Source: an uncultured Acidobacteriaceae bacterium (lineage in GTDB: Bacteria; Acidobacteriota; Terriglobia; Terriglobales; Acidobacteriaceae). From it: a stretch of DNA of 64,000 nt. How positions within the stretch are numbered: position 1 is the stretch's first letter; each line of letters starts with the position of its first letter. The position numbers and the translations under genes were made by a program. This document shows, one piece after another, positions 52,107-56,971 of this stretch. The DNA is taken from assembly GCA_963724815.1 (NCBI GenBank), contig CAVRWS010000016.1, positions 51,741-115,740 on the forward strand, in the 5' to 3' direction. Under the pieces are notes generated by a model that saw only the letters and a list, made by a program, of their open reading frames with translations, was not told the DNA's origin and made no database searches.

Positions 52107-52283
52107 ATGAAGTTCACCTGCTCGCACTGCGCTCACCACGTCACCACGCTCGACTTCGACCCGCGCGACGGCAACCTCCGCACCCAGGCCGCCACCGCCA
52201 TCAACCAGCACGCCACCAAAGTGCACCACGAGCCCGTAATGTTCTCCTCGCTCGACGCCCAACAACACATCTGGCGCGCCTGA
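52107..52283 (+). CDS. hypothetical small Cys/His-containing protein
   Basis: MKFTCSHCAHHVTTLDFDPRDGNL... with GC3-rich codon usage like neighbouring genes. Alternative GTG start at 52068. No family recognised. Confidence 0.25.
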   Translation: MKFTCSHCAHHVTTLDFDPRDGNLRTQAATAINQHATKVHHEPVMFSSLDAQQHIWRA

Positions 52284-52574
52284 TCCCCGCGCACACAACG
52301 CCCAGCATAAAACAGGATTGTCATTAAACAGGATTGCCATTAAATTAGGCTTGTCATTCCGAAAATTAGGATTGTCATTCCGAGCGCGCCGCAGGCGGGC
52401 GAGAGCCTGCCCTGAGCGGAGCCGAAGGGAACCTGCTCTGAGCGAGTCGAGGGGAACCCGCCGTTCGCGTTTGGGTAGCGCAGCGCTTCAGCGCTGTGAT
52501 CTGGCCAAAAAAATAACCAGCGGCTTTAGCCGCCAAAGTGTTGCACCCGAGATTGTCCCCAGGAATCGAAGCAA

Positions 52575-52603
52575 TTGGAAATTTGAGGCTCCCCGCCTAC
52601 AAT
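52575..52603 (+). promoter_or_regulatory. candidate promoter TTGGAA-N17-TACAAT for a leaderless antitoxin mRNA
   Basis: ttggaa 52575-52580 and tacaat 52598-52603. The ATG at 52611 is only 7 nt after the -10 and has no SD. Confidence 0.35.
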
Positions 52604-52610
52604 AATATTT

Positions 52611-52835
52611 ATGGAAATTTCCCTAGCGCCTGAGCTTGAAGCGAGCCTCGTGAGAATTGCTTCCGAAGCGGGCAAGGCGGCGAATCAAGTCGTCGAGGAG
52701 TTGGTCGCGGACTACCTGCGCCATGACGAATGGTTCAGGCGAGAAGTGCAAAAAGGCGTGGCCTCTTTGGACGCGGGCAAGTTCGTGTCGCATGAAGAAG
52801 TGGGCCGCCAAATCGAGCGCATCCTCAGGCCTTGA
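52611..52835 (+). CDS. ribbon-helix-helix ParD/CopG-like antitoxin, no adjacent toxin gene
   Basis: 74-aa ORF with N-terminal RHH strand-helix (ISLAPELEASLVRIASEAG) and a ParD-like C-terminal tail (VQKGVASLDAGKFVSHEEV). Confidence 0.7.
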   Translation: MEISLAPELEASLVRIASEAGKAANQVVEELVADYLRHDEWFRREVQKGVASLDAGKFVSHEEVGRQIERILRP

Positions 52836-53042
52836 TGACGGTTTTGACTGCCGTTGACCTCGCTGTTGGTTTTGATCGATCCCGAACACGAACCGAATGC
52901 AGCGCCGTGGAAGAGCGGCGCTTCAGCGCCGCGTAAAGCCCCACAATAGATCGGGCTTCAGCCCCTGCGACAACCCGACGCCGCAAAGATACCTGGAATT
53001 TCCTCCCACCAACGTGTAAAAAGGAACCCCGACTGTGAAGGG

Positions 53043-53069
53043 GGCCACGGCAATGCCGTGGCCTTTTTT
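53043..53069 (+). terminator. intrinsic-terminator-like hairpin ending repeat unit 1
   Basis: ggccacggc-aat-gccgtggcc followed by tttttt. Confidence 0.6.
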
Positions 53070-53874
53070 ACCTTGTCATCCTGAGCGAAGCCGAGAGATT
53101 CGCGAAGCGAATCCCTCAGCGTAGTCGAAGGATCCCTACCTCCTCCCGACTCCCGTTCGCACCCGGCCCGTGTGCGAACAGCAGCCCCCGCCTGTCCGCG
53201 CCGCGAAGCGAAGCCCAGCAAGTGTAGAGCGGGCACCCCTGCCCGCTGCCCTTGACCTTGCCGTTGGTTTTGATCTTGCCGTTGGTTTTGATCAATCCCG
53301 AACACGAACCCACGCAGCACCGTGGAAGAGCGGCGCTTAAGCGCCGCGTAAAGCCCCACAATAAATCGGGCTTCAGCCCCCGCGACAACCCGACGCCGCA
53401 AAGATACTTGGCATTTCCTCCCGCCAAAGTGTAAAAAGGAACCCGACTGTGAGGGGGCCACGGCAGCGCCGTGGCCTTCTCTACGCTGTCATCCTGAGCG
53501 AAGCCGAGAGATTCGCCAAGCGAATCCCTCAGCGTAGTCGAAGGATCCCTACCCTCATCCCGACGCCCGCTCGCGACCCGCTCCCATGTGTGCACACCCG
53601 CCCTCGGCTGTCAGGCGAAGCACCTACGTTCGTGTAGAACGGACACTCCTGTCCGTTGCCTTTGACCTTGCTCTTGGTTCTGACTGCCGTTGACCGAGCA
53701 GTTGGTCTTGATTGATCCCGACGCGAGCCCACGCAGCACCGTGGAAGAGCGGCGCTTCAGCGCCGCGGTAAGCTCCCAGATGAATACGGGCTTCAGCCCC
53801 CTTCGGTAACCCGATGCCGCAAAGATACTTGGCATTTCCTCCCGCCAAAGTGTAAAAAGGAACCCGACTGTGAG

Positions 53875-53906
53875 GGGGCCACGGCTTAGGCCGTGGCCCC
53901 TTTTTT
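53875..53906 (+). terminator. intrinsic-terminator-like hairpin ending repeat unit 3, directly abutting the RBS of the PIN-like gene
   Basis: ggggccacggc-ttag-gccgtggcccc (11-bp stem) followed by tttttt, then GGAGGA (53907-53912) and GTG 53921. Confidence 0.65.
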
Positions 53907-53920
53907 GGAGGACCTCGACG

Positions 53921-55270
53921 GTGCGAAAGACATTTGTCGGCTATTACCGACCCACAGAAACCGAGTTCAACCAGTTATGGGATAAGTGCATCTTCGTACT
54001 GGACGCGAATGTCCTCCTGAATCTTTACCGCTATACAGAGGAGACACGCAAGAAGCTTATAGACATACTCCAAAGGATCAAGGGACGACTCTGGGTTCCT
54101 CACCAAGCGGCTCTCGAGTATCAACGCAACCGTCTCGAAGTCATTTCCGCCCAAAGAGAAGCGTATACGGAGATAGAACGCTTACTGTTAGAGACCCAGA
54201 AGAAACTGGACTCCCAAGTGAGAAGCTACAAGCGGCACACGCTTATCAATACCAGTAAATTGCTAGAGCCCATAGATAAAGCGCTTGCGGCTCAGGTTGA
54301 GACGCTGAAAGGGACCCTTCAGAAACATCCCAACCTAGTCGAAAAGGATGATGTCCGAGAGATACTGACGAAGCTCCTAGCCGGAAAAGTTGGGCCGCCG
54401 TACTCCGAAGAAAAGCTGGCACAAATTTATAAAGACGGGGAGCAACGGTATGCCAAATCAACGCCGCCTGGGTTCAAGGACGCGAAATCCAAAGATGGTC
54501 AGCGAGCCTTCGGCGACCTGGTGCTGTGGTATCAGGTAATGGACAAGGCAATCGCAGACAAAGTGCCAATAATCATTGTGACTGACGACGTTAAGGAAGA
54601 CTGGTGGTGGCGACACGAAGGCAAGATTATTGGGCCTAATCCCGAGTTGATTGAAGAGATATGGAAAAAAGCGAGCGTAGGCTTCTATATGTATGTGTCC
54701 GACCAATTTATGGAGTACGCGAGGGAACACCTCAAGGAACAAGTCGACCAAGGAGCAATCGACGAGATACGCGAGGTCCGGAAATTAGATGAGCAAAGCC
54801 GGATTCGCTTTCAGACGGCTTTGCACAGCGAGAAGTTCATCAACAACCTTCGGGTGCAACTTGTGTCCTCGGACGCTGAGACAATCAAAACCCGCGCTGA
54901 GATAGAGGCAATTAATAACAGGCTCACAGAAATAAGGGCGCAGCCCCACGAGTTGGGCCAAGAGGAACAGAAACTAGAACTGGTCGCGAGCCTCTCGATG
55001 CGAGTCGGAGAGCTTGAGGGCAGATACCACGCTCTCGAAATAAGACGAAACGAACTCGAAACACGGCTGCGCGCCGCCCAGGATAAGCGCAATGTGGCGG
55101 TACACCGCAGGCCCGAAACCTTCCAAATGGTGAGGACCGGAGACGGCCGTTTCCATGCGGTGCCCGCGCGAGTCGCCAGCGGGCAGACCCCAGCCCGTGA
55201 CGGGACTCCGAACGTCCACCCCCCGAAAAAACCCGCGCCGGGGCAGGCAGCTAACGACGAGCAAGAATAG
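53921..55270 (+). CDS. PIN-like domain protein with C-terminal coiled coil and Pro-rich tail
   Basis: ORF 53870..55270. Likely GTG start 53921, 8 nt after GGAGGA. PIN-like blocks FVLDANVLLNLYRY, VPHQAALEYQRN, FGDLVLWYQV and IIIVTDDVKEDWWW. Heptad-rich segment around residues 300-400. Many ATA/AGA/AGG/TTA/CTA codons that are rare in flanking genes. Confidence 0.75.
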   Translation: MRKTFVGYYRPTETEFNQLWDKCIFVLDANVLLNLYRYTEETRKKLIDILQRIKGRLWVPHQAALEYQRNRLEVISAQREAYTEIERLLLETQKKLDSQVRSYKRHTLINTSKLLEPIDKALAAQVETLKGTLQKHPNLVEKDDVREILTKLLAGKVGPPYSEEKLAQIYKDGEQRYAKSTPPGFKDAKSKDGQRAFGDLVLWYQVMDKAIADKVPIIIVTDDVKEDWWWRHEGKIIGPNPELIEEIWKKASVGFYMYVSDQFMEYAREHLKEQVDQGAIDEIREVRKLDEQSRIRFQTALHSEKFINNLRVQLVSSDAETIKTRAEIEAINNRLTEIRAQPHELGQEEQKLELVASLSMRVGELEGRYHALEIRRNELETRLRAAQDKRNVAVHRRPETFQMVRTGDGRFHAVPARVASGQTPARDGTPNVHPPKKPAPGQAANDEQE

Positions 55271-55636
55271 ACAACCAGCTGGCCCCGTTTTACATACCGT
55301 TCAGCGCTCCAGCTCTGTGACATCTAACCTTTTCATCCACAGCCCCAACCACTGATCATCAAAGCGAAGGCAGAGCGGCACCATGATTCGTCGTCGTCCA
55401 GCGCGGGCCAACTCCTTTGCTTCACGTATTTTGACCTCTAAGCTCTTTGAAAAACGGATTTTGCGTAGAATTTCCTGCTCACCCTATGATTCCCCATAGA
55501 CCATGGAATAGGGGGGAGGGTACCCCACGAACCAAGCTCCGATGCCCGAAAAGGGTCGCGGGAAGATCGGCAGCCGTGCAGATGGGAAGAGGCGGACAGT
55601 AGTGTCCGCCCCACACGAGCAACGCGGTACCAGCTA

Positions 55637-56971
55637 TTAGCTCACAACCTTATCCGTAATCTCCAGCCCGCAATCGATAATGGCAAACGCTTCGCGCAGT
55701 TGCTGTTCGTTGATGCACAGCGGAGGATTGGTAAAGAAAGTGTTCCAGCGCACGAACGTGTAAAGCCCCTGCTCGCGGAAGAAGCGCCCGAGCGCGGCCA
55801 TTTCATCGGACGTGCCATTGAACGGAGCCATCGGCTGGCGCGTCTTGCGATTGCGAATCAGTTCGACGATGCCAAATAAACCAATCGACCGCACCGCTCC
55901 CACCGACGGATGCTTCGCATGCAGTTCGGTCCCAAGTTGCGTCAAAATCGCGCCCATTTTTTTCGCGTTGTCGATCAGGCCATCTTCTTCATAGACGCGA
56001 ATGGTCGCCAGCGCCGCCGCGCAGCCCATGGGATGGCTGTTGTAAGTCAGCCCTCCATAAAACACCTTGTCCTGAAAATGCTGCGCGATGTGATGCCGCA
56101 TGCCCACAGCGCCGAGAGGAAGATAGCTGGAAGTCAATCCTTTCGCCATGCAAAGCAGATCGGGAACAACCTTCCAGTGATCGACCGCAAACCAGGAGCC
56201 AGTGCGTCCGAAGCCCGACATCACTTCATCGGCAATCATCAGGATTCCATACTTGTCGCAAAGCTTGCGCACGCCTTCGAGATATCCGTCAGGCGGAACA
56301 AGAATGCCATTCGTTCCAGTAACCGGCTCAAGGATGAACGCCGCAATCGTCTGCGGACCCTCAAGCTGAATCGTCTCCTCAATCATGGCAAGCGAAGATT
56401 CCGCCGATTCCCAACCGCGCTCGATGCCATGATAAGGATCAAGCACATGAATCACGCCCGGAATGCCAGGTTCCGCGGCCCATCTGCGGGGATCGCCGGT
56501 GAGACTGATCGCTCCCGCAGTTGCGCCGTGATAAGAACGATAGCGCGCGATGATCTTGTGACGTCCAGTAAAGAAGCGCGCGAGCTTGATGGCGTTCTCG
56601 TTCGCGTCGGCTCCGCCGTTGGTGAAGAAGAATGTGTCAATATCGCCGGGAGTGATTTCGGCAAGCTTGGCGCCGAGCCGCGCGCGAACTTCCGTCGCCA
56701 TGAAAGGGTTCGCATACGCAAGCGTTGCGGCTTGTTCGCTGATCGCTTGAATGACGCGCGGGTCGCCGTGTCCAATGTTGACGGACATAAGCTGGCTATT
56801 GAAGTCGATGAAGCGCTTGCCCTCGGGCGTGTAGAAATAAATTCCCTTGGCGCTGGCAACCGGAATCGGATCGACCTTCGATTGCGCCGACCATTCGTAG
56901 AGCGTGTGCTTGCGCGAGAGATCCACGATTTCCTTGCCCGTCAGGGAAGTGGTTTCAGCGATGGTGGTCAT
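55637..56971 (-). CDS. class III omega-aminotransferase (beta-alanine/taurine:pyruvate type)
   Basis: ORF 55637..57346. Likely start ATG 56971 (MTTIAETTSLTGKEIVDL). PLP-lysine region DLLCMAKGLTSSYLPLGAV. Confidence 0.9.
   Translation of the reverse strand: MTTIAETTSLTGKEIVDLSRKHTLYEWSAQSKVDPIPVASAKGIYFYTPEGKRFIDFNSQLMSVNIGHGDPRVIQAISEQAATLAYANPFMATEVRARLGAKLAEITPGDIDTFFFTNGGADANENAIKLARFFTGRHKIIARYRSYHGATAGAISLTGDPRRWAAEPGIPGVIHVLDPYHGIERGWESAESSLAMIEETIQLEGPQTIAAFILEPVTGTNGILVPPDGYLEGVRKLCDKYGILMIADEVMSGFGRTGSWFAVDHWKVVPDLLCMAKGLTSSYLPLGAVGMRHHIAQHFQDKVFYGGLTYNSHPMGCAAALATIRVYEEDGLIDNAKKMGAILTQLGTELHAKHPSVGAVRSIGLFGIVELIRNRKTRQPMAPFNGTSDEMAALGRFFREQGLYTFVRWNTFFTNPPLCINEQQLREAFAIIDCGLEITDKVVS

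Follow-up and report, generated by a model that had tools for sequence, protein, structure and literature searches.

A PIN_8-family nuclease gene in an exchangeable slot of an Acidobacteriaceae genome, a candidate stand-alone defense gene

How does a solitary, foreign-looking gene for a PIN-like nuclease come to lie among the housekeeping genes of an acidobacterial chromosome, and what might it do there? The DNA that raises the question comes from an uncultured Acidobacteriaceae bacterium (assembly GCA_963724815.1, contig CAVRWS010000016.1, positions 51,741 to 115,740), and its whole length of 64,000 nucleotides (nt) is called the window here. The gene lies at 53921-55270 of the window, on the forward strand, as do all window features given with coordinates below except the insertion as a whole and its tandem repeat, to which no strand is assigned. 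A model that saw the bare sequence had picked it out, and this original prediction was of a horizontally acquired defense or abortive-infection gene. We find that 53921-55270 is a genuine, horizontally acquired single gene for a PIN-type protein whose helical tail evolves fast; nuclease activity and service in defense or abortive infection are what we infer from the comparisons described here.

The gene and its predicted protein

According to the list of open reading frames (ORFs) and its translation, the coding sequence runs from a GTG start to a TAG stop (55268-55270) and specifies 449 amino acids (aa). A Shine-Dalgarno (SD) sequence, GGAGG, can be read at 53909-53913, 7 nt ahead of the start. 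The longer frame that is open from 53870 is evidently unused, since the closest homologs begin with M-R-K-T-F, which aligns at the GTG at 53921. A profile search of the genome returned the gene as a single copy. Its flanks are housekeeping genes: on one side an S58 peptidase gene and a small conserved gene, and on the other a class-III aminotransferase gene followed by mmsA. The gene is isolated, as had been noted at the outset, with a tandem repeat upstream and 366 nt of noncoding DNA between it and the convergent aminotransferase gene downstream.

The protein matches the Pfam family PIN_8 (PF18476) through aa 24-243, encoded at 53990-54649, and the match takes in all 227 positions of the model (E 2.7e-68; score 230.7 bits, cut-off 26.1). 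PIN_12/DUF4935 (PF16289) is also matched, barely above its threshold and far more weakly (32.5 bits; cut-off 32), which, judged from the sequences, would reflect a sister-family relationship to PIN_8. PHROG 9788, a family of unknown function, covers aa 2-306 (E 2.4e-65), and an NCBIfam search of the protein gave no match. The blocks of acidic residues on which the PIN-like assignment had been based are all present, namely VLDANVL (D28), ALEYQ (E66), FGDLVLW (D199), and VTDDVKEDWWW (D222, D223, and D227). In an alignment of 75 homologs, D28, E66, D199, and D227 never vary, and conservation of D222/D223 is 90% or higher; these conserved columns give candidate catalytic codons at 54002-54004 (D28), 54116-54118 (E66), 54515-54517 (D199), 54584-54589 (D222/D223), and 54599-54601 (D227).

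An AlphaFold2 model of the full-length protein, built from a 75-sequence alignment, had a predicted local distance difference test score (pLDDT) of 89.9 and a predicted template modeling score (pTM) of 0.79. It shows, in order, a split beta-alpha PIN core, an alpha/beta extension to about aa 271, a helical hairpin, a low-confidence beta hairpin, and a disordered tail. The VapC-like core is divided into catalytic blocks at aa 24-66 and 193-240 by a helical insert (helices at aa 61-101 and 111-135), all within one protein that has no partner gene. In the predicted structure, the conserved acids fall at PIN active-site positions, with D28 at the end of strand 1, E66 and D199 at helix starts, and D222/D223 in a T-x-D motif after strand 4.

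Recovering PIN domains by structure required folding the N-terminal 295 aa separately (pLDDT 91.8); with the full model, the hairpin swamps the search, and Foldseek returned solely dynein stalks and other coiled coils. VIA-align of the N-domain model found PIN domains aligned across their whole length, among them 1y82_A (Z 9.2; 146 of 147 residues), Rickettsia felis VapC2 (3zvk_A; Z 8.8; 132 of 134), the DIS3 PIN domain and PcrIIC1 (both Z 8.5), and FitB (2bsq_A) and Shigella VapC (both Z 8.0). Foldseek on the N-domain agreed weakly with the PIN fold (E ~0.2), and a sequence profile search of the PDB gave spurious coiled-coil matches alone, with no solved relative by sequence. As modeled, then, the N-terminal module has a PIN fold of the VapC group. 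On this point the original prediction is borne out by the family match, the structural matches, and the conservation of every acidic residue.

Beyond the PIN_8 domain, the alpha/beta extension of the N-terminal module (aa 244-294; 54650-54802) is shared by nearly all homologs. In a phmmer search of 1.84 billion representatives of 50% identity clusters, which gave 8,177 matches at E <= 1e-3 and 3,722 at E <= 1e-30, nearly all family matches aligned over aa 2 to ~295 (most over query residues ~1-295) and at their own N-terminus. The remainder had been described as about 100 aa of heptad-rich sequence with a Pro-rich tail, and the model agrees: it predicts an antiparallel two-helix coiled-coil hairpin (aa 277-395; 54749-55105), with helices at aa 277-340 and 348-395 and a pLDDT of 93-98, and a disordered Pro-rich tail (aa 420-449; 55178-55267; pLDDT ~45-50) that cannot be aligned among homologs. 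VIA-align of the full model matched the hairpin to that of CT398 (Z 12.9; root-mean-square deviation 1.2 A over 101 aa) and also to prefoldin and SMC/Rad50 coiled coils. This part evolves rapidly; among the 22 closest homologs, identity is 68% in the N-terminal module versus 26% in the hairpin. Across the family, the tails beyond about aa 295 (median length, 122 aa) are hypervariable: BLAST clustering of 252 of them gave 171 clusters, and 23 of the 252 are of the type seen here, a hairpin with a Pro-rich end. A search for longer, fused homologs found none, which is weak evidence.

The insertion site and its shared elements

Codon usage and distribution both mark the gene as accessory. Its combined use of ATA, AGA, AGG, TTA, and CTA (6.9 per 100 codons) is at the 99.6th percentile of the 3,180 ORFs of the genome and at the top of the 41 long ORFs of the window. 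ATA makes up 0.41 of its Ile codons (99.3rd genome percentile) and AGR 0.31 of its Arg codons (95.9th). GC content is low (0.534; 5.5th percentile), and GC content at third codon positions (GC3), 0.618, is no outlier at the 27.6th percentile. The foreign codon usage that had been claimed for the gene is therefore real for the rare codons, while GC3 is ordinary. Among 36 other genomes of the genus, we found one intact PIN_8 copy, one fragment with a 105-aa open frame (G034), and one sub-threshold match; none of 24 sister-family genomes had the gene.

The site tells the same story. When the relative G002 was aligned base by base, the flanks were 48 nt apart, as against 3,396 nt in the window (52256-55651), so that the whole 3.4-kb insertion, consisting of short repeats, a RelB-like ORF, the tandem repeat, the PIN_8 gene, and an element that we call Y, is missing there. 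The sites of G004 and G008 appear to be likewise empty, judged from BLAST spacing; G046, G048, and G050 match the flanking mmsA gene only and are not used as evidence here. The empty site, the patchy occurrence of the family in the genus, and the foreign codons together uphold the proposal of horizontal acquisition.

Two further relatives, G084 and G090, are syntenic on both flanks and have one copy each of a second element, Z, which in the window lies immediately upstream of the PIN_8 gene. In G090, the slot keeps both Z (window 53832-53898) and Y (window 55316-55493) around different cargo, in the order Z, 412-aa protein, 119-aa ORF, MT-A70 methyltransferase, Y, and aminotransferase (L155:4243-6710). 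The sole window-specific stretch between Z and Y is 53899-55315, which is essentially the PIN_8 gene alone; because of this, comparison of the sequences indicates that the gene is swapped as a one-gene cassette. Y (55316-55599), the noncoding 3' boundary of the slot, is conserved in G090 (L155:3549-4214), with about 79% identity by blastn (76 to 82%) and part of it duplicated. It has few dispersed copies, found on the genome's own contigs C51, C40, and C28 and in relatives, and in the G018 slot it has the opposite orientation.

The 412-aa protein of G090 has no match in Pfam, PADLOC, or NCBIfam. By eye, its C-terminus contains a D...E-x-K pattern, and with the MT-A70 methyltransferase it possibly forms an undescribed restriction-modification pair.

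The Z copy next to the gene (53815-53906) is the third in the window, after those at 52980-53070 and 53395-53485. In it, a conserved TTGGCA...CCTCCC...TAAAAAGGAACCCGACTGTGA block is followed by a GC hairpin of 11 bp and then by a T-run reaching to 2 nt ahead of the SD sequence. The predicted fold of Z is very stable (-48.5 kcal/mol; z -3.4), and compensatory changes are seen in the stem in relatives (CCACGG/CCGTGG to TCATGG/CCATGG in L130 and L134). From its sequence, the CCTCC block could pair with the SD. One can envision Z as a leader or attenuator, an insulator, or a recombination boundary. An integron attC site was considered and set aside, as the hairpin, with its perfect GC stem of 11 bp and its T-run, is terminator-like; no formal attC search was run. 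A consensus terminator scan of the plus strand did not list the hairpin and T-run (53874-53906) in spite of the very stable predicted stem, and an Rfam search found nothing at or near any family's gathering score.

Each Z copy ends a unit of the tandem repeat at 52840-53898 (Tandem Repeats Finder; 415-bp period, 2.5 copies). Each unit is itself assembled from dispersed smaller units resembling repetitive extragenic palindromes, with 49 dispersed matches in the genome itself. Relatives and PIN_8 homolog loci have one Z or hairpin copy and no array. A type III toxin-antitoxin (ToxIN-like) reading of the repeat was rejected, given that the unit of 415 bp is not short and that the array is peculiar to this strain.

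Of 80 other genomes of the genus, 24 have Z-like elements, about one per genome. On the upstream side these elements sort into four or more syntenic hotspots, whereas the sequences downstream of them are unrelated (loci L120-L147). Depending on the genome, the gene just 3' of Z encodes ThsA (E 1e-153), a defense-associated reverse transcriptase (DRT) of type UG19 (1.5e-135) or UG13a (4e-74), a PD-T4-6-like kinase (2e-44), a DpnI-like enzyme (6e-58), or Dam; in others it encodes a SIR2-like, DndB-like, DACNV-domain, NA37, FRG, DuOB, or nucleosidase-like protein, and in some a protein without a family match. That equivalent slots in relatives hold known defense genes strengthens the case for a defense function here. 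By position, proteins of about 500 to 530 aa encoded directly 3' of Z at L123:1-1596 (-), L138:3-1505 (-), and L132:1497-3056 (+) are candidates for undescribed defense genes. None has a Pfam or PADLOC match, that of L132 giving weak coiled-coil or SMC-like hits only, and the L123 and L138 genes are about 70% identical at the DNA level.

Part of Z is also found farther afield. A "CTGTGAGGGG-stem-loop-T-run" lies directly 5' of PIN_8 homologs on metagenomic contigs L041, L043, L040, and L044, where a GC hairpin and T-run follow CTGTGA(G/A)GGG (L041:9948-9989; L043:9947-9983) at 15 to 45 nt from the PIN_8 starts. The four homologs are 46 to 61% identical and their hairpin stems differ by compensatory changes; from these comparisons, the 3' part of Z seems to travel with PIN_8 genes beyond the genus.

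Relation to known PIN systems

PIN_8 was defined as a cluster of 458 sequences, in the VapC structural group and of unknown function, by Matelska, Steczkiewicz, and Ginalski (2017; PMC5499597). Our protein shares with it the full-length hidden Markov model match, the four to five conserved acids, and the long helical insert after strand 2, and the family, like the gene here, is mostly monocistronic and bacterial, with occasional phage copies. It differs in nothing essential, being a member, though its particular C-terminal module, the hairpin and Pro-rich end, is confined to a small subclade. To call such proteins largely uncharacterized, as was done earlier, was right, yet the family is catalogued, in Pfam and in that 2017 study, and one member has been flagged by software as probably defensive.

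That member is an E. coli protein, WP_114499597.1 (PF18476 at 99.9%), listed as a "predicted novel defense gene" and not among the cloned units in the DefensePredictor study of DeWeirdt, Mahoney, and Laub (PMC13092281). Two PIN systems from the same study, DS-3 and DS-5, do defend E. coli, and catalytic mutants abolish the defense. DS-3 (WP_022645725.1, 340 aa) is one protein in which the PIN domain is split between N- and C-terminal parts, with no antitoxin, and autoinhibition was proposed. It resembles the protein here in being a single protein with PIN blocks separated by a long helical insert and in lacking a cognate antitoxin. Its working label "PIN8" suggested membership in PIN_8, but we do not equate the two, since the authors' Pfam table gives PF01850 only, at 56.9% probability (PMC13092281). 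By eye, DS-3 also lacks the HP, PPG, and DWWW hallmarks of PIN_8 and a C-terminal tail.

DS-5, which pairs a PIN_12/DUF4935 nuclease (WP_021513009.1) with a DUF5830/AcrIF4-like partner and was validated in E. coli (PMC13092281), is close in another respect. Compared by family, its nuclease belongs to the sister family, the system is not a toxin-antitoxin pair, and the catalytic residues are needed for defense. It differs in needing a second gene, whereas the cassette here has one gene and no partner is conserved at homolog loci. Indeed, among closer homologs (38 to 61% identity; 80 metagenomic loci) there is no conserved neighbor, in accord with the stand-alone character first proposed for the gene. 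Other PIN or NYN defenses, HEC-03 and HEC-09 (Payne et al.), are not PIN_8, and Menshen NsnC, considered as a relative, was dismissed as an inactive, unrelated PIN.

With VapC toxins (PF01850), the protein shares the PIN fold, as seen in the matches to R. felis VapC2, FitB, and Shigella VapC, and the D-E-D-D constellation; by analogy with them it is probably an RNase. It differs in size, at 449 aa versus about 135 (130 to 150) aa, with an insert of ~130 aa, the alpha/beta extension, and the C-terminal hairpin. VapBC systems also have an adjacent antitoxin, and none lies beside the PIN_8 gene here.

Possible functions and their alternatives

Weighing these comparisons, we lean, by somewhat more than an even chance, toward a stand-alone, one-protein defense nuclease that is autoinhibited and acts against phages, in the manner of abortive infection, or against mobile elements. 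Also counted in favor of this reading are the precedent of DS-3 and DS-5, the mobility of the family on plasmids and phages, and the restriction-modification-type setting of a distant PIN_8 subclade, the last two described below. In such a protein, the N-terminal module (aa 1-294) would be the effector, its VapC-like PIN core binding Mg2+ or Mn2+ through D28, E66, D199, and D222/D223, and it would most probably cleave RNA. The fast-evolving hairpin and tail could be the regulatory or sensing part, keeping the nuclease inactive until an infection cue is received; the tail is proposed as the inhibitor because no antitoxin gene travels with the PIN_8 gene. The probable role of the Z leader, with its promoter-like hexamers, CCUCC block, strong hairpin, and U-run just ahead of the SD, is to hold basal expression down or insulate it.

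Several observations weigh against a defense function. Variable hotspots gather accessory genes of every kind, so that sharing a slot with defense genes is guilt by association. The same site in other relatives holds membrane proteins (G018), a secreted protein (G022), or a fimbrial-like operon (G003). The 150 immediate neighbors of the closer homologs are diffuse, the largest count for any Pfam family being 3, and the PADLOC hits among them are mostly generic domains with no dominant defense family. PADLOC-DB v2.0.0 has no model for the protein, the sole hit being LmuB (E 0.71) on the coiled coil, and a literature search on PF18476 found no functional paper and no experiment on a PIN_8 member. 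The heavy load of rare codons, in addition, may mean that the gene is poorly expressed in its host.

The main rival, to which we give about one chance in several, is a nuclease that serves a mobile element, in plasmid or prophage maintenance, exclusion, or competition, possibly in an addiction-like manner, with the chromosomal copy a stranded passenger. PIN_8 relatives are indeed frequent on plasmids (69 plasmid records), and they occur on at least 120 IMG/VR contigs and as the last gene of one Clostridium phage; integrases adjoin eight homolog loci. Of these plasmids, one of 4.2 kb from Psychrobacter has a PIN_8 gene as its main cargo, and one of 5.2 kb from Klebsiella carries one as well. 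Against this, a classical addiction module needs a conserved antitoxin or immunity partner, which the gene does not have, and the chromosomal slot here has no integrase, replication, or transfer genes nearby. This explanation also overlaps largely with defense, as the cargo of prophages and plasmids often consists of defense genes.

The two small plasmids can be described a little further. In Psychrobacter pA48P2 (L036; 4,204 bp) and Klebsiella pC51_006 (L037; 5,240 bp), the PIN_8 gene is the main non-replication cargo and is preceded, on the same strand, by a hypothetical ORF of 65 or 91 aa, respectively, without a family match. These two small ORFs are unlike one another and unlike the RelB-like ORF of the window.

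We consider it improbable that the gene is an idle passenger, recently acquired, poorly expressed, and decaying. The rare-codon load and the strong, terminator-like hairpin and T-run immediately upstream would fit, as would the fragmentary copy in G034. The ORF is nevertheless full length, with every conserved residue intact and a good SD and start. The same hairpin, moreover, is found ahead of intact PIN_8 homologs and of other intact defense genes in relatives, which argues that it is a functional leader rather than a block.

Less probable still, and largely refuted, is a type II toxin of the VapBC kind whose antitoxin would be the 74-aa RelB-like ORF at 52611-52835, the pair having been split by a 1.07-kb tandem repeat insertion. 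PIN domains are well known as the classic VapC toxins, the structural matches include VapC, and the small ORF does lie upstream on the same strand. It had been called an orphan antitoxin, a label that did not hold up: its similarity to the NCBIfam RelB family (E 1.8e-4) is sub-threshold (21.5 bits against a cut-off of 50), it has no Pfam match, it lies about 1.07 kb upstream, and no ORF resembling it was found near any of about 180 other PIN_8 loci. Its 5' part is kept in the G084 slot, which has Z and no PIN gene, and this makes the ORF a piece of the conserved flank rather than a partner of the PIN gene; the exchangeable cassette contains the PIN gene alone. The protein itself is three times as large as a VapC, with a C-terminal module of its own.

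Least probable of all is a host nuclease for housekeeping or regulatory RNA processing, like other multidomain PIN proteins; PIN domains do take part in the maturation of rRNA and tRNA and in the decay of RNA, with DIS3, Nmd4, and PRORP among the structural matches, but 35 of the 36 other genus genomes and all 24 sister-family genomes are without an intact copy, the site is empty in relatives, the codon usage is foreign, and the family is carried by plasmids and phages.

If the gene is a defense nuclease, as we favor, it would add an acidobacterial member with a coiled-coil tail to a family that may rank among the larger single-gene immune families still awaiting validation. A broader, more speculative version of this view, which we hold only tentatively and consider rather doubtful, is that PIN_8 proteins form a very large family of one-protein anti-phage nucleases (more than 8,000 clusters), in which a split-PIN effector is joined to a hypervariable tail of ~120 aa acting as sensor and autoinhibitor, and that the genus swaps single-gene cassettes between a shared Z leader and Y, unlike integron cassettes or classical defense islands. 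The precise boundaries of the cassette make a clean test construct, and with the nuclease body conserved and the tail hypervariable, the autoinhibition or sensor model can be put to the test directly. Should our reading prove wrong, what remains is an ordinary accessory nuclease from a catalogued family. The Z/Y slot is in any case a more unusual feature than the PIN_8 gene, and its wider interest may exceed that of the gene itself, with one leader ahead of ThsA, DRTs, kinases, restriction enzymes, and a PIN gene genus-wide.

A distant alphaproteobacterial PIN_8 subclade (31 to 38% identity) has a setting of a different kind, as the last gene of a conserved six-gene operon. The order is an Eco29kI-like endonuclease, Vsr, a 775-aa GHKL ATPase, an Mrr_cat-ResIII helicase, a 175-aa protein without a family match, and PIN_8 (loci L005-L018 and L020, for example L005:4088-11119), and the carriers are Alphaproteobacteria together with one Nitrospirota and one Acidobacteriota metagenome-assembled genome. 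At L019:7922-10633, a single fusion protein combines the GHKL ATPase with the C-terminal half of PIN_8. The operon, with its Eco29kI-like, Vsr, GHKL, and Mrr-helicase genes, is the restriction-modification-type neighborhood of MORC and paraMORC ATPases described by Iyer, Abhiman, and Aravind (2008; PMC2292703); the gene in the window differs in standing alone, outside any such operon. At L005, the six genes are followed by a SIR2-like gene and an OLD/AAA_15-like ATPase gene.

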